Source: an uncultured Chloroflexia bacterium (GTDB lineage Bacteria > Chloroflexota > Dehalococcoidia > DSTF01 > JALHUB01). From it: a stretch of 64,000 bases of DNA. The number at the start of each line of letters is the position of its first letter. Positions within the stretch are counted from its first letter, which is position 1. The position numbers and the translations under genes are program-made. Shown piece after piece: positions 30,148 to 54,589 of this stretch. Under the pieces are notes generated by a model, which did not search any database, had not been told where the DNA came from, and was given only the letters and a program-made list of their open reading frames with translations. The DNA lies in assembly GCA_963703345.1 (NCBI GenBank), contig OY969814.1, forward strand, positions 512,001 through 576,000. The letters are read 5' to 3'.

Positions 30148-30624
30148 ATGGCCATCATCGATCGAGAGCGCAACATGACGGTCAGCAACCTTCCTCCAGA
30201 CCGAGAAGAATGGGCGGGTCTCTACGCCGCCTTCGCGATTCTGCGCAAGGAATCGGAGAGGGCGCTGTCGGCGTGGGATCTGACGGTCCCCCAGGCGGCG
30301 GTGCTGGCGCTCCTCGCCGAAGCCCCCGGTCCGCTGCCGATAACGAAGCTGGCCCGGCTGTTGCTTCAGGAGAGCCCAAGCATCACTAGCCTTGTCGACC
30401 GAATGTGCAACAACGGCCTCGTGAAGCGCGGCAAGGACCCCGACGACCGACGTTTGGTGCTGATTCAGCTAACCGCCAAAGGCCGCCGCGTCCACGACGA
30501 AGTCCGCTCCCACGCCACAGCCTTTAGCGACGAGATGTTCGGCGTGCTGACGGACGAGGAGCGCATCACTCTCCGCCAGCTACTGCACAAATTCGGGCGC
30601 GCTAACGTAAAGCGGCTCCGCTGA
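30148..30624 (+). CDS. MarR-family regulator
   Basis: LTVPQ, DPDDRR, LTAKG. Confidence 0.9.
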   Translation: MAIIDRERNMTVSNLPPDREEWAGLYAAFAILRKESERALSAWDLTVPQAAVLALLAEAPGPLPITKLARLLLQESPSITSLVDRMCNNGLVKRGKDPDDRRLVLIQLTAKGRRVHDEVRSHATAFSDEMFGVLTDEERITLRQLLHKFGRANVKRLR

Positions 30625-30637
30625 TCGCGGTCCTCGC

Positions 30638-31543
30638 TTACGTCAACCATCGCCTCCTTGCGTACCAGCCTGCGGCACCGAGGAGCAGGATTCCTGCGAT
30701 GCCGCCGACGATGGCCGCGTGCATTGGAGTCGACGAGCTCCCTGAGGCGGCGCCAGCAAGCGGTCGCCCGTTCACATCTGGTGCGTCTGCCACACCGCCG
30801 ATGGCCGCGGGCGTTGGCGGTACGATCGTCTTGATCGCAGGCGCGCACACCTCCGCCGGCGAGAGAACCGCTACGTTCTGCTGCGGGCCGAACTGGGAAA
30901 TCACGTTAAGGACGGGGCCCGGCGGAGATCCGGCGATGCCGAAGCACTCAACATGGGGCACGTTCATATCCCCTACGCCGTTCTTGATCGACGGCAGGCA
31001 GAGATGCGTAGGCGGCCCAACTGACACACTTTGCTCCACGCCCAACTGCGTCTCCAGTGTCACCGGCGGAAATGCAGGCGATGTTCCGGTAACGCCATAG
31101 CACTCGTAATGCGGTGCCACCGGCAGTATCGTGGACGGTAGTTCCGGCGCTATCGCTATGTTGGCGGGCACGCACAGCTCGTTGGGAGCGCCAACCGGAA
31201 CGTTTGTCTGAATGCCGAACTGCGTTTGCAGATTTACGACCCGGTCGGGAAGAGGTTCCGCAATAGCAAAACATTCCACGTTCGGCGCGTTCAGGTCTCC
31301 CTCGCCGTTCTTCAGGGCGGCCAGACAAAGGCGCGTTGAAAGACCGACGGCCACTTCCTGCACGACGCCGAACTGATTCTGCAGCCTCACCGAGAAACCT
31401 GGCAGCGGCCGCGCGCCGATATCGTAGCACTTGTAATGGGGCACCGTGGGGAGCGGCGGCTGAGCCGTCGCCGGCCCCGGGACCCCCCAGGCGAGATACG
31501 TCGCCGCGAGAGCCGCCACCAGTGCTGAAGCTATCTTCTCCGT
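30638..31543 (-). CDS. Secreted Cys-repeat protein with C-terminal GG-sorting-like tail (probable ACG start; alternative ATG at 31591/31600)
   Basis: Signal peptide; four repeats like HYKCY...QFG...LC; tail IGGVADAPD-TM-WYARRR. Confidence 0.75.
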   Translation of the reverse strand, partial: TEKIASALVAALAATYLAWGVPGPATAQPPLPTVPHYKCYDIGARPLPGFSVRLQNQFGVVQEVAVGLSTRLCLAALKNGEGDLNAPNVECFAIAEPLPDRVVNLQTQFGIQTNVPVGAPNELCVPANIAIAPELPSTILPVAPHYECYGVTGTSPAFPPVTLETQLGVEQSVSVGPPTHLCLPSIKNGVGDMNVPHVECFGIAGSPPGPVLNVISQFGPQQNVAVLSPAEVCAPAIKTIVPPTPAAIGGVADAPDVNGRPLAGAASGSSSTPMHAAIVGGIAGILLLGAAGWYARRRWLT

Positions 31544-31680
31544 CTCCTTAGCCCCTCGTTTTCCGCTGCCCGACGGGCCTTCCCGGCGCATGCACTTCAC
31601 TGGAGCACGTCCGGCATGGCCCGACGGGCCAATCGCCGCCGTTCGTTCGTTCGTCTTGGGCGCGCGGTCCTCGACGGCGG
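31544..31680 (-). promoter_or_regulatory. Conserved structured 5' leader, copy A
   Basis: Strongly similar to 33169-33312; CCGCCGT/ACGGCGG and GCCCGnCGGGCC/GGCCCGTCGGGC stems. Confidence 0.65.
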
Positions 31681-31824
31681 GAGACGCTCATGGGGAAATA
31701 TCTCGTCAACCGAGAGATTTCGCTCCCGCGGGCACAAACACCCGGATCTCGACGCTTCCGTTGCCTGGTCAAGGCTTACAGGTAGGAGCCCGGCAGCTCT
31801 CTTGGCTGTGGCAACAGCTCCCGT

Positions 31825-33168
31825 TTACGCCAACCATCGCCTCCTTGCGTACCAGCCCGCGGCGCCGAGGAGGAGGATTCCGGCGATGGCGCCGCCGATG
31901 GCCGCGTACGTCGTGGTCAACGAGCCCCCTGAGGCGCCCGCAAGCGATCCCCCGTTCATATCCGGTGCCTCCGCGACGCCGCCGACAAGACGCGGAGTGC
32001 TTGTGGGCGTCAGCGTCCGTGTTGGCGTAGGCGTGGGCGTGTTCGTCGGCGTGGAAGTGGGGGTGGGCGTATCAGCCGGCAGCGACACATAGATCAGGTC
32101 CACGACCGACCACGGCACCCATCCGCCGTTGTCTTCGTCGTAGCACCGGATCGCCAGCGGGGCCGTGCTAGTGACGTCGCACAGGTTGAATGGGTCAGTA
32201 CCGTTAGAGGCCGCCGAATTGTTGTGGTCGGGCTTGCTTTGCCAGAGTGGCGGGAGGGCAGCATCACTATGAAGGCCGCTGGGCACAGGGTTTGGTGGTG
32301 GCGCGGAGGCATTGGTGGTGTGAGTCCAGGGATCGGCGACGGTGATGGTCCCATGCCCAGCAGCACCCCCGGCAGTGTTGTAGCCTACTCCTGCGACCAC
32401 GTGGGCGGTCTCGGGAGTGGGGGAAGTGGTTCTCTCCAGCCACAGCAGGACGTCCTTACCGCTGCTCAGTTGGGTCTGGTAGTCCAGGAAGGTGGGCGGG
32501 CCGGCGACCTGGTCAACACCGGGCACGTGGCCGGGCGCGACCGCTCCCGGGCCGCAGGGGTTGAGAGTGTTCTGGGTGGGTGCAGCCCTGTTGACTTTCA
32601 GCCCGAAGTGACCGGGCGCGCACTTGGCCGGGTCGATGATGTCGTGGACCGCCAGGCCGTTACCGTTGTTTACGTAGGTCTTGAGGCCGATGAGGTAGTC
32701 CCACTCCTCTACGCCCTGGCCGTAGCAGTAGTTGGTCTCTAAGCCGTCCTTGCTGCCGTTCTGGTTGGTATCCGTGAACGTGCTCTCGGCGATCTTCCTC
32801 AGTACCATGGGGTAACCTATGACCGGAGCCGGAAGGCCGTCAACTGCGTCGCGCGAATCGTACCAGCAGGCGCTTCCGGCGTTCTTGCTGTCGTCGTCGA
32901 TATTCTTCCAGGTCTCATCTGGGCCCAGCAGCCCCTGCTGTCCGCTGGCATTATCCGCAAACCACCAGAAGGAGTCGGCGGCCGCTCCCACCCAGCACCA
33001 GGCGTCCGAGTGCTGGCCGAGGTCGGGCATGGAAACCTTCCAGAAGCTCACCGGCGGCGCATCCGCCCGCGCCGTGCTGCCGGCAGTATGCAGCAGGGCG
33101 AGTGTGAGGACCGGGGCTATCGCCGCCAGAGCTGCTGCACCAACTAAAACTGAGAATAGCTTCTTCAT
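31825..33168 (-). CDS. Secreted papain/C39-like cysteine peptidase with PT linker and GG-sorting-like tail
   Basis: MKKLFSVL signal; Q...WCWVGAAA, AHVVAGVGY, VADPW (Cys-His-Asp); VGGVAEAPD-TM-WYARRR. Confidence 0.75.
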   Translation of the reverse strand: MKKLFSVLVGAAALAAIAPVLTLALLHTAGSTARADAPPVSFWKVSMPDLGQHSDAWCWVGAAADSFWWFADNASGQQGLLGPDETWKNIDDDSKNAGSACWYDSRDAVDGLPAPVIGYPMVLRKIAESTFTDTNQNGSKDGLETNYCYGQGVEEWDYLIGLKTYVNNGNGLAVHDIIDPAKCAPGHFGLKVNRAAPTQNTLNPCGPGAVAPGHVPGVDQVAGPPTFLDYQTQLSSGKDVLLWLERTTSPTPETAHVVAGVGYNTAGGAAGHGTITVADPWTHTTNASAPPPNPVPSGLHSDAALPPLWQSKPDHNNSAASNGTDPFNLCDVTSTAPLAIRCYDEDNGGWVPWSVVDLIYVSLPADTPTPTSTPTNTPTPTPTRTLTPTSTPRLVGGVAEAPDMNGGSLAGASGGSLTTTYAAIGGAIAGILLLGAAGWYARRRWLA

Positions 33169-33312
33169 CTCCTTAACCTCTCGCTTTCCGCTGCCCGACG
33201 GGCCCTCCCGGCGCACGCACGTCGCTGGAGTGCGTCCGGCACGGCCCGTCGGGCCAATCGCCGCCGTTCGTTCGGCTTGGATGCGTAAGCGGCATCCCGC
33301 CCCCGACGGCGG
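33169..33312 (-). promoter_or_regulatory. Conserved structured 5' leader, copy B
   Basis: Strongly similar to 31544-31680. Confidence 0.65.
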
Positions 33313-33513
33313 CCAACCCCGCTGTCTATTCCTGTCGGCGCCTCCTTTCGGCTAAGGGGTCCTTCCGATTGAATTCCAACGAGCCGACCTATAGAATATG
33401 AAGTGCTAGGGTCTGCGCCCGCATTCCTTAGCCCGGGCCCCGCTGGCCACCACTATGCGGGGCCTCTTCTTGCCGCGTAGGCGATGTTCTAGTGTTCGAC
33501 CTAGCGCACAGAC

Positions 33514-35930: not shown

Positions 35931-38072
35931 TTAGCGCGCCTTCCGCCAGCGCCTCCGCGCGTACCAGCCGCCCGCCCCGAGAACGATCACTGCAGCCCCG
36001 GCTCCCGTCAGAGCGGCGTAAGGCGGCGACGTTGAGCCGGCCGTCTGCGGAGGCGGCGCGTTCATGTCCGGGGCCTCCGCGATGCCGCCCACGGCAGGAT
36101 CACTCGCAGACGCGGACCGATCCACAACATTGACCTTGACGTAGTCATTGTCCCAGGCGCCTTGGCAATGGTCAGGCCAGGGCGGAATGCCGCAAGCATT
36201 CACCGTGGCAAAGTTCGTGATTACACCGGGCGTGCTCAAAGTTACGTCCACCGATTTCTCGCACGTGTTGCCCGCGGAGATCAATGAGCAGTCGCCGTCC
36301 AAGTTGGGGAGAGCGTCATCAACGACGTTCGCGTACATTGGTCGGTCACCGCTGTTGGTGACAACCCAACGGAAAGTGACCGAATCTCCAACGTGTAAGG
36401 TGATAGGCCCCTGCTGGCCGTTGGCGGTCTCGTCAATGGACGCCTTCGGGGCGGATCTTACGCTTGTGGGCGTGAAGGTGGGAGTGGGTGTCGGTGTGCA
36501 CATGCCAGGAGGACACGGCGTCGCGGTTGGGGTTGGAGTCCCCGTGTCGGTAGGGGTGGGAGTGGGAGTCGGCGCCAGGAGCGTGAAACTGAGATCTCCT
36601 CTGCTCCCGGCAAAGCCTCCTACCTGAAAGTGATAAGTGGTGCCGGCGATAGCATCGAACGTGATGAGAGACGTCAACCCGGGCCCCGAATCATCGTCGC
36701 AGGCCAGGTTGGTCAAGTCCCCCAAATCGCTTCCCGTGTAGACTGCCAGGGCCGAGTCGTAGTCGCTTCCCGCGGTATCGACCTGCAGCATCACGCTTTG
36801 AGACGGCGTGTAACTGTACCACACGGTCGAGCCGATGCTGGCGCAGGGCTGGGGCTCGCTAGTCTGCGATGAGGCGCACATAGTAGATGTGTTAGCCGAA
36901 AACGGTTCTGCCCCTATCCCAGCCGCGTTGGCGAAATAGTCGTTCCCGGGCGGAATACAGGCCTGGAAGTCCAACACGTTCACCGGGCTGACGCTGTCGG
37001 TCGTCGTGCCATCACCTAGTTGGCCGTATCCGTTGAAACCCCAGCACTGGGCGCTGCCGTCGCTGAGCAGGGCGCATGTATGGTTCCAGCCGGTGGCGAT
37101 GGCAACTGCGTTGCTCAGGCCCGAGACCGGCACCGGACTGCCACCGTAGCCCGCGCCCCAGCATTTGGCCGTGCCGTCACTAAGCAACGCGCAACTGTGC
37201 TCCCAGCCGATAACGACAGCGATCACGTTGCTCAGGCCCGAGACCGCCACCGGGCTACTCTGACTAACATTTGTCCCGTCTCCTAATTGGCCGTTATTGT
37301 TGAAGCCCCAGCACTTGACGGTCGCGTCAGCGAGGAGGACACAAGTGTGGCCGAAGCTCCGACCGGGTGCGATGCCGGTGGCGTTGTTTAGACCCGAGAC
37401 TGTGACGGGGGCAGACTGGCTAATCAGTGTGCCGTCCCCAAGCTGACCGAACGAGTTGAAACCCCAGCACCTGACAGTGCCGTCATTGAGCACGGCGCAA
37501 GTATGATATTCTCCGCCGCCAATCGCTACGGCATTGCTGAGATTCGAGACGGCCACCGGGTTGGAGCGATTCATCGTGGTGCCGTCGCCTAGCTGACCGT
37601 GCGAGTTCTCGCCCCAACAGCGCATCGAGCCGTCGCCGAAGAGGGCGCAAGTGTGGTTGCCCGCCGCATTGATGGCGATGACGTTGTTCAAGCCCGAGAC
37701 CGTGACGGGTGTGTGGTGGTCCGCGGTCGTACCGTCTCCGAGCTGGCCATCTCCGTTCCAGCCCCAGCACTTGGCGGTGCCGTCGTTGAGGAGGGCGCAG
37801 GTGTGGCTGGTACCGGCGGAGATCGCGACGGCGTCGGTCAAACCCGAGACCGTGACGGGTGTGTGGTGCTCTGCGGTCGTACCGTCCCCAAGCTGGCCGT
37901 ATCCGTTCCAGCCCCAGCACTTGGCGGTACCGTCGCTGAGCAGAGCGCAGGTATGCTGCCCTCCACCAGAGACAGCGCCGAGGAGGGTTGCAGAGCCAGG
38001 CTTGGGCCGGCCCAGCCCCAGGATTGCGAGCACCGCCAGAAAGGATAGGACTATCGGAATCAAGCGTTTTAT
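35931..38072 (-). CDS. Secreted RCC1-repeat beta-propeller + PPC-like + Ig-like protein with GG-sorting-like tail (ATA start at 38072 or GTG at 38081)
   Basis: Seven HTCALL..G..KCWG.N..GQLGDG repeats; PT linker; VGGIAEAPD-TM-WYARRR. Confidence 0.88.
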   Translation of the reverse strand: MKRLIPIVLSFLAVLAILGLGRPKPGSATLLGAVSGGGQHTCALLSDGTAKCWGWNGYGQLGDGTTAEHHTPVTVSGLTDAVAISAGTSHTCALLNDGTAKCWGWNGDGQLGDGTTADHHTPVTVSGLNNVIAINAAGNHTCALFGDGSMRCWGENSHGQLGDGTTMNRSNPVAVSNLSNAVAIGGGEYHTCAVLNDGTVRCWGFNSFGQLGDGTLISQSAPVTVSGLNNATGIAPGRSFGHTCVLLADATVKCWGFNNNGQLGDGTNVSQSSPVAVSGLSNVIAVVIGWEHSCALLSDGTAKCWGAGYGGSPVPVSGLSNAVAIATGWNHTCALLSDGSAQCWGFNGYGQLGDGTTTDSVSPVNVLDFQACIPPGNDYFANAAGIGAEPFSANTSTMCASSQTSEPQPCASIGSTVWYSYTPSQSVMLQVDTAGSDYDSALAVYTGSDLGDLTNLACDDDSGPGLTSLITFDAIAGTTYHFQVGGFAGSRGDLSFTLLAPTPTPTPTDTGTPTPTATPCPPGMCTPTPTPTFTPTSVRSAPKASIDETANGQQGPITLHVGDSVTFRWVVTNSGDRPMYANVVDDALPNLDGDCSLISAGNTCEKSVDVTLSTPGVITNFATVNACGIPPWPDHCQGAWDNDYVKVNVVDRSASASDPAVGGIAEAPDMNAPPPQTAGSTSPPYAALTGAGAAVIVLGAGGWYARRRWRKAR

Positions 38073-38241
38073 GACGCTCACCTCCCAAGACTACTTGCGG
38101 CCCCACAACAATTTCAAGCCGGAACTAGCGGCACCTGCGGCGTGCATCAAGGAAGAGCGGCAATAACTTCCATTCGCTCAACCTCGCTGTTGGCGGGGGT
38201 GAAGCAGCGGAGCTATTCAGCAACGAGCCGTCGATGCGAGG

Positions 38242-53569: not shown

Positions 53570-54589
53570 TTGACACCCACCGGGCCACAACCGGCGAATG
53601 CGGCGTTCCGAGGCGCGAACGGGAGGATCACGTTTCAGAGTGACCGCGATGGTGCGACGTACGAGATTCATAAGATGAACACTGATGGCAGTGGCCAAAC
53701 GCGGCTGACGAACAATACGGCAAACGATACTTCACCTTCTTGGTCGCCGGATGGCTTGCAGATCGTGTTCGATAGCACCCGGGACGGTGCCACTTACGAG
53801 ATCTACAAGATGAACTCCGACGGTACGGCACAGACACGTCTCACCAACAACGCCGCCAACGATCTGTAGCCAGCCTGGTCGCCGGACGGCTTGAAGATCG
53901 CGTTCGCCAGCGGGGATGGTGTCACGTACGATATCTACAAGATGAACGCCGACGGCAGCGGCCGGACGCGGCTGACCAACGATAGTGCTATCAACACAGC
54001 ACCGGACTGGTCGCCCGATGGCTTGAAGATCGCGTTCGGCAGCGACCGGCAGGGGAACCGCGACATCTATGTGATGAATGCTGACGGCAGCGGCGAGACG
54101 CGGCTGACCAACGATAGTGCTATCAACACAGCACCGGACTGGTCGCCCGATGGCTTGAAGATCGCGTTCGGCAGCGACCGGCAGGGGAACCGCGACATCT
54201 ATGTGATGAATGCTGACGGCAGCGGCGAGACGCGGCTGACCAACAGCGGCGCCGTCAATGCCAATCCTGCCTGGTCTCCCGACGGACATCGTATCGCCTT
54301 CTCCTCCAGCAACCAGGTCTACGTTATGAATGCTGATGGTACCGGCCAGACACGGCTGACCAACGACTCAGCAGACGATCTGTCCCCCGATTGGCAGCCG
54401 CTGTCGGTTGTGGGTGGCGTCGCGGAGCCTCCCGACGTAGCCAGCACCTCCGTTGAACAGGCTGGAGCGCCTGAGGGACGTTCTGGCCGGTCGGCTGGCG
54501 AATACGCGGCTCTGGCTGGCGGCGCGACCGGGCTGGTCATGGCGGCGGGCATCAGCGTTTGGCACGTCAGGAAGCGCTCAAGCCGATAA
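53570..54589 (+). pseudogene. TolB-like (PD40) beta-propeller with GG-sorting-like tail; in-frame TAG at 53867-53869 and no signal peptide
   Basis: PxWSPDG repeats continue in frame across NDL*PAWSPDG; tail VGGVAEPPD-TM-WHVRKR. Confidence 0.8.
53965..54244 (+). repeat. Perfect 132-bp tandem repeat (about 2.1 units)
   Basis: Units start at 53965, 54097, 54229; one 44-aa propeller blade each. Confidence 0.92.

Follow-up and report, generated by a model that had tools for sequence, protein, structure and literature searches.

In the window analysed here, i.e. the whole stretch of 64,000 nucleotides (nt) at positions 512,001 to 576,000 of contig OY969814.1 from an uncultured Chloroflexia bacterium, two tandem genes for predicted cell-surface proteins, termed A and B, share the DNA of their ends around unrelated middles. 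The source genome (G000, in which the window is G000:C1:512001-576000) is a single contig of 2.28 Mb with 64% G+C and 96% completeness; labels of the type G0xx denote genomes of relatives, Lxxx loci and P00xx protein homologues used in comparisons. On the minus strand B precedes A, which is followed by a convergent MarR gene. Both genes possess a signal-peptide start, a middle part (hereafter the payload) and a C-terminal tail opening with a VGG-type motif (the VGG tail). The features of the locus are as follows.

30148..30624, plus strand: gene of a MarR-family regulator (Pfam MarR), convergent, the fixed downstream neighbour, 78-89% identical and syntenic in four congeners
30638..31543, minus strand: gene A, 301 codons from ACG, with a B-derived signal-peptide start, a DUF7450 payload and a VGG tail
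30638..30802, minus strand: tail of A, made up of an I-G-G motif, a linker, a hydrophobic helix and WYARRRWLT; it is a copy of the tail of B, 12-nt insertion included
30653..30657, minus strand: two AGG codons for Arg that together give GGAGG, 12 nt ahead of the stop of A
30803..31462, minus strand: payload of A, consisting of four Cys-pair repeats (DUF7450); its closest relatives, at 50-55% identity, are stand-alone proteins with DUF7450 and a VGG tail
31532..31649, minus strand: leader of A, a copy of the leader of B, with two palindromes of 13 base pairs (bp) near 31568 and 31618 and a weakened hairpin
31650..31824, no strand assigned: spacer from the stop of B to the leader of A, with weak likeness to the B-MarR spacer of the congeners and no terminator-like site found
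31825..33168, minus strand: gene B, 447 amino acids (aa), with a signal peptide, a predicted papain-fold domain, a Pro/Thr linker and a VGG tail; the resident gene of the locus
31825..31986, minus strand: tail of B
31840..31844, minus strand: two AGG codons for Arg that together give GGAGG, 12 nt ahead of the stop of B
32071..33054, minus strand: predicted clan CA (papain-like) cysteine peptidase domain, residues ~39-366, from fold match and conserved residues
33157..33274, minus strand: leader of B, a 12-bp stem whose arms are the palindromes, just upstream of the ribosome-binding site; no Rfam match
33388..33432, minus strand: conserved dyad-like upstream element, not copied into A; no Rfam match

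A sequence-only reading of this stretch had noted that the 3' ends of ~165 bp and the upstream regions of ~140 bp are highly similar at the DNA level, while the middles encode a Cys-repeat protein and a cysteine peptidase. BLASTN bears this out for the tails (30635-30801 vs 31822-31985), which are identical at 140 of 167 positions (84%, E-value 5e-48). The leaders (31532-31649 vs 33157-33274) are identical at 104 of 118 positions (88%, E-value 7e-40), and weaker likeness widens them to ~150 nt and continues into approximately the first 15 codons, possibly reaching the signal-peptidase site predicted from the sequence, whereas the upstream element of B, 220-260 nt ahead of the gene, lies outside the shared part. 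The likeness stops past the signal-peptide start and picks up again at the VGG codons; the replaced part of gene A is roughly the mature domain. The middles, whose homology would have pointed to simple duplication and divergence, are indeed unrelated (best BLASTP E-value 2.1) and belong to different folds or families.

The tail family is widespread in the genome, so a tail common to A and B is expected; the likeness between these two is nonetheless far above the family level. For the last 165 nt, A/B rank second among the 231 tail pairs of G000 (identity 0.84; median 0.65), while the first, third and fourth pairs are full-length paralogues, and BLASTN found only two copies of the leader in the 2.28-Mb genome, those of A and B. 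An artefact of assembly is unlikely: protein A is known from a second, independent record with a single differing residue, and the two sets of flanks have diverged by 12-16%. The longest perfect matches between them are 27 and 25 nt. The contigs of one low-depth DNA read set cover only pieces of the locus, with no joint in them.

The payload of A was correctly recognised as a Cys-repeat protein: it scores 44.4 bits against DUF7450 (Pfam cut-off 27; E-value 1.9e-11) and contains eight Cys residues. DUF7450 has one occurrence in G000, none in the 8 congeners, and is found in 3 of 9 other genomes of the family. The tail model scores on 38 of 45 homologues of the payload (the record of A itself counted), and the named loci encoding its relatives are all from Dehalococcoidia (5/5), the class to which the source organism probably belongs as well. 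An atlas search with this payload returned DUF7450 clusters only, at 0.78, which is a lead and nothing firmer.

For B, no family match was found in Pfam or NCBIfam, and its alignment gave 0 matches against PDB sequences. A structure model was built from 37 homologues (predicted local distance difference test only 62.8). It resembles staphopain C (VIA-align: Z 11.2, root mean square deviation 3.3 over 164 residues), with papain-like folds in the top-ranked rows, and Foldseek agrees weakly (top rows from clan CA, all with E-value > 0.001). Residues Q52, C58, H256 and D279 are kept, in the papain order, in at least 90% of the 37 B sequences. The earlier assignment as a cysteine peptidase is thus supported by fold and conserved residues, and B is predicted to be a papain-fold peptidase of clan CA. 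With the known members of this clan (staphopain C47, interpain/SpeB C10, IdeS C66, papain C1A) it shares the predicted fold and the conserved Gln, Cys, His and Asp, but the sequence identity is 8-17% and none of the family models matches; as several clan CA families fall within 1 Z unit of each other, B is not placed in one of them. Three homologues of B carry extra domains before the tail, namely DUF7450 repeats in P0022 and P0037 and another domain in P0033.

An iterated profile identified 22 open reading frames (ORFs) with the tail among the 20,557 stop-to-stop frames of G000. They end in VGG...helix...WYARRR, with an xGG motif in 21 of 22, and carry diverse payloads (NHL, Kelch, RCC1, cohesin, vWA, M28, hydrolase and others). 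The tail is present in 18/18 genomes of the family and, at a stricter cut-off, in 13/251 genomes of the class. The alignment (20 of 22 tails) reveals a tripartite layout of motif, hydrophobic helix and basic cluster at the C-terminus of signal-peptide proteins, which suggests that the VGG tail is an uncatalogued sorting-type signal; the named NCBIfam sorting domains match it weakly (best E-value 1e-4 among 20 tails), and the scores of A itself are under the cut-offs. Judging from sequence, A and B are likely to be sorted in the same way. G000 contains five sortase-family genes, none of them beside the A/B locus: four lie behind a large secreted-protein gene (G000:C1:687480-692426) and the fifth at 1843680; several proteins have PxTG-like ends that differ from the VGG tail. 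Models of caspase (PF00656), C25 (PF01364) and CHAT (PF12770) had no match in G000, where a divergent enzyme would be missed, and the C25 model matched no control either. An orphan fragment of the VGG tail (helix end and Arg cluster) lies just behind the stop of another gene (G000:C1:1458178-1458215). The window contains two more VGG-tail genes, encoding an RCC1-repeat protein (35931-38081) and a PD40-repeat ORF (53870-54589); the latter is a frame without a signal peptide and may be broken. Literature searches covering few subscription journals returned nothing joining Dehalococcoidia and a sorting signal, nothing on DUF7450 and nothing relevant to CTERM in Chloroflexi; the main text of the myxosortase preprint makes no mention of VGG or Chloroflexi.

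The ancestry of the parts of A can be read from the relatives. Four of the 8 congeners hold the locus (G002, G003, G007, G008), with the order MarR-B-SGNH hydrolase and no A; with this query B was not found in the other four, three of which are fragmented assemblies. In metagenomes the leader pattern gave a single match, again a B-only locus. The 12-nt tail insertion is private to A and the B of G000 and absent from the four congeners. In the tree of tail DNA (69 rows) A falls inside the B-tail clade (100/99), and the congeners' B tails form a group that excludes both (99/97); support for the A+B fork itself is weak (91/24), with a bootstrap that is not fully settled. Synonymous divergence (dS) of the tails, a rough measure at ~45 synonymous sites, is 0.30 between A and B, 0.45 between G002 and G003, and 0.81-1.43 between B and the congeners. 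The dS values, the tree and the insertion together indicate that the split of A and B is specific to this lineage but old, and so is the event that made A. The flanks of A descend from this lineage's own B, its middle is of foreign origin and from a separate family, and this combination points to a chimera.

We therefore regard it as probable that A took its leader, signal-peptide start and tail from B and its middle from an unrelated family of surface proteins, by local duplication of B and recombinational replacement of the mature domain. B would have been duplicated locally and the mature domain of one copy replaced, in either order. General recombination would have carried out the replacement, the partner probably being another VGG-tail gene whose DNA the cell had taken up (ComEC is present in 5/5 genomes). 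The crossovers would lie in the sole stretches such genes share, i.e. the promoter, leader and signal peptide at one end and the VGG codons at the other. Products with signal peptide, payload and tail in the same reading frame would be retained by selection, and this would give the cassette-like look; what operates here is probably ordinary recombination and not a new machine. Several observations weigh against this account. No donor of the payload was found (the best homologues are 50-55% identical), hence the crossover points are placed where the likeness to B ends. Neither a B-B duplicate nor a locus with A alone was seen as an intermediate. Between unrelated VGG genes the tail DNA is just ~63-69% alike, a low figure for homologous recombination, so that the account has to invoke illegitimate or microhomology steps. 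Adjacent tail pairs are for the most part unexceptional (median identity 0.70 vs 0.69 for non-adjacent ones), and duplication with replacement leaves the conserved GGAGG of the tail, described below, unexplained. The A/B pair provides a clean and dated example of a surface-protein gene that originated when a foreign domain entered the frame of its neighbour.

The expectation that the same flanks enclose different payloads in relatives fails at the A/B locus, where the payload of B is the same in 4/4 congeners holding the locus and in the metagenome match, but holds at other tail-gene loci. The regions around tail matches in four congeners (71 matches listed, 68 genes recovered) were compared with the 22 genes of G000. 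Eleven loci are syntenic on both sides in at least two genomes, with the payload kept at 6 and changed at 5; payloads thus differ at fixed loci among congeners. At the changed loci the best tail identities are 0.82, 0.82, 0.78, 0.73 and 0.56, and the low values at part of them indicate that some are whole-gene replacements. The most distinct example is the locus G000:C1:1669292, at which the promoter-like sequence, ribosome site, first codons and tail are constant around four payloads: RCC1 (G000), SBBP propeller + CARDB (G002, G003), DUF11/CARDB (a tandem copy in G003) and PD40 + CARDB (G008). An M23 peptidase gene of G008 shares only the tail and the downstream flank with this locus. The tandem pair of G003 mirrors A/B (front 85% over 101 nt, tail 88% over 150 nt), shared ends around unrelated payloads were also found in G014, G004 and G001, and shared tails in G258, G033 and G021. 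Among adjacent pairs of tail genes, 3 of 19 (one of them A/B) combine a tail identity of 0.8 or more with unrelated payloads, as do 3 of 290 non-adjacent pairs; the pairs include kin, which are not independent. Domain shuffling of sorting-tail surface proteins is apparent in that one tail is carried by many unrelated proteins and chimeric genes of mixed ancestry exist. The idea that constant flanks permit recombinational exchange of payloads agrees with the change of payloads inside a constant frame and with the frame of A being that of B; it does not extend to an active or dedicated exchange at the A/B locus, with its old flanks (dS 0.30) and no recombinase near. The payload varies among congeners at nearly half of the loci that can be compared, so that synteny and common ends are misleading guides to orthology and function here.

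Further observations concern the movement of VGG genes. Gene units of 1.4-3.0 kb occur at intergenic sites of congeners that are empty in G000 (L092, L077, L132, L133, L134, L122, L142), and one of them is flanked by a direct repeat of ~28 bp. G000:C1:82438 (NHL/YNCE propeller) and G000:C1:1420329 (RCC1) share 121 nt at 93% across the signal-peptide region, which is a recent swap of a 5' module.

Alternatively, an intact A-type gene could have been inserted beside B, and gene conversion could then have overwritten its leader and tail with those of B. Stand-alone genes with a signal peptide, DUF7450 and a VGG tail are common, and VGG genes come and go at intergenic sites; however, conversion of the leader needs prior homology, a B-type leader is found at none of six DUF7450 loci (five from genome contigs, one from G011), the only metagenome match to the pattern of the leader is a B locus, and two separate conversions would be required, one per end. 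We consider this history unlikely. There is only a slim chance that the VGG-tail genes are an evolved surface plug-in platform of Dehalococcoidia-type bacteria, in which each locus has its own frame, the tail is conserved at the nucleotide level and an unrecognised system exchanges mature domains between frames and cells. Somewhat slimmer still is the chance that DUF7450 repeats were added to B in front of its tail, with a duplication of this fusion afterwards and the loss of a different domain from each copy. Two of the 37 homologues of B (P0022, P0037) are such peptidase + DUF7450 + tail fusions, but this path takes at least four steps, the repeats of A group with stand-alone DUF7450 proteins and not with those of the fusions (41% and 39% identity), and the B of G000 groups with the B of a congener and not with P0022 (both groupings by FastTree only).

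Less probable again is a dedicated cassette system that swaps payloads via a site in the tail and leader. It would agree with the turnover at 5/11 loci, with tail likeness that begins at the VGG codons in three independent loci and with nucleotide-level conservation near the tail end; yet the conserved GGAGG sits at the opposite end of the tail from the presumed crossover, the leaders differ or are unrelated from locus to locus, the VGG codons are near background codon usage, and no common junction motif was seen by eye in 7 comparisons of filled and empty sites (6 sites). Nor is there a suitable enzyme close by: no recombinase was found near the locus (PF00589, tyrosine recombinases: 6 matches, none within 470 kb; PF00239, serine recombinases: 4 matches, the nearest ~96 kb away), and reverse transcriptase (PF00078) was not found in G000, which is 96% complete. 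That protein-level and regulatory constraint on a shared tail and leader alone produced the likeness, as the motif common to all VGG tails and the GGAGG that raises DNA likeness near the stop might suggest, has practically no chance given the A/B tail identity of 0.84 vs the median of 0.65, the low synonymous divergence and a non-coding leader with two copies only, and is refuted by the shared 12-nt insertion together with dS.

The payloads were also supposed to inherit the same regulation, which is doubtful: the upstream element of B (33388..33432) is missing ahead of A, the leader of A folds no better than shuffled sequences (z -0.4 vs -4.2 for B), and A codes ACG at the position of the ATG of B. 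An alternative in-frame ATG at 31591, 48 nt upstream of the ACG, would give 317 aa, with no evident Shine-Dalgarno sequence. A may now be poorly or weakly translated; the open frame, the eight Cys kept, the ratio of nonsynonymous to synonymous divergence of the tail (0.41) and the second protein record speak against decay.

Each leader contains two 13-bp palindromes ~50 nt apart (31568-31630 and 33193-33255), and outside the two leaders the genome has only three matches to the 12-nt palindrome patterns. The main stem shows no compensatory pair changes in 5 sequences; invariant arms of this kind suggest that operator sites are as plausible as an RNA stem. No Rfam match was found for the leader (best E-value 0.14, all 5 matches far under the gathering threshold), and a riboswitch in the leader or upstream element received no Rfam support, also with 9 and 5 further sources. 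The element at 33388-33432 consists of a ~28-bp dyad-like sequence with an A/T-rich hexamer behind it, and also precedes other VGG-tail genes with unrelated payloads in G001, G004, G010 and G013 (L030, L031, L032, L033); it is probably a promoter or operator. A promoter and terminator scan of the locus gave one site, on the opposite strand, and no terminator. In several congeners, numerous VGG genes whose payloads are unrelated have another upstream element of ~100 nt in common (G000:C1:82385-82484, upstream of 547931 and 1197282; L087, L117, L075), with no Rfam match in the loci tested.

A new and more surprising point is the GGAGG formed by rare AGG codons before the stop and kept across orders. 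The Arg pair after (W)Y-x is encoded by AGGAGG in 9 of the 16 G000 tails having such a pair, vs 24 of 3,841 Arg-Arg pairs in 960 likely genes, and GGAGG lies 9-30 nt from the gene end in 11/22 tail genes vs 113/1,955 others. For 8 of the 11 positions listed the distance to the stop is exactly 12 nt, and G000 has a complementary 16S end. Across G000 and relatives, NGGAGG is present in 76/97 tails (a count that leaves out family f4 and the unpublished G060) and in 36/51 after clustering at 75%, a level used because at 70% nearly all tails fall into one uninformative cluster; outside the order the motif is kept in 17/19, and in family f4 in none of the 10 tails printed. The first Arg codon has changed from AGG to CGG in 10 clusters and the second in 0 (p 0.002), with AGGCGG nearly absent, as expected under selection on GGAGG. 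This coding pattern would imply selection at the nucleotide level, and our best guess is that Shine-Dalgarno pairing keeps the ribosome in place at termination, although the motif may instead have spread by transfer or act at the DNA level. Translational coupling was rejected, as no consistent start codon follows GGAGG in the G000 tails printed (inspected by eye). No relevant literature was found, in searches of the same coverage as above, on Shine-Dalgarno-like motifs before the stops of tailed proteins. The motif contributes little to the likeness of A and B. Should it act on the ribosome, translation termination would be connected with membrane anchoring in proteins with C-terminal tails.

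Integrons, shufflons, vlsE, msp2 and pilE likewise combine constant flanks with a variable middle. Such programmed cassette systems use a dedicated recombinase and its site, or silent homologous cassettes with near-identical flanks, whereas in A/B the middles lack homology, the flanks differ by 12-16%, and neither an enzyme nor a site of this kind was found. The homologous silent cassettes and near-identical flanks of antigenic variation have no counterpart here (unrelated middles, matches of at most 27 nt, dS 0.30), nor do a recombinase at the locus and one conserved site at both junctions, as in site-specific cassettes, or the reverse transcriptase of retroelement-driven diversification, which was not found in G000. 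Terminal reassortment of type III effectors, reportedly described by Stavrinides, Ma and Guttman in 2006, is said to join a promoter and export signal to unrelated coding sequence by ordinary recombination. In A, by comparison, both ends are inherited (leader and signal peptide as well as the C-terminal tail), the export is Sec-type as predicted from sequence, and the organism is environmental. The PEP-CTERM/exosortase and GlyGly-CTERM/rhombosortase sets, according to the available parts of PMC1569441 and PMC3237569, likewise consist of unrelated secreted proteins with a common short motif, a membrane helix and a basic tail, and in the former PEP-CTERM genes are stated to turn over fast between congeners via duplication and loss. 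The motif here is VGG, exosortase models have no match in G000 (a divergent enzyme would be missed), and replacement of the payload inside a locus-specific frame is not described in those parts of the two papers. Finally, homology-facilitated illegitimate recombination, as outlined in PMC3240628, combines a homologous crossover at one end with illegitimate joining at the other; with ComEC present here, this process would fit one well-matched and one poorly matched junction.

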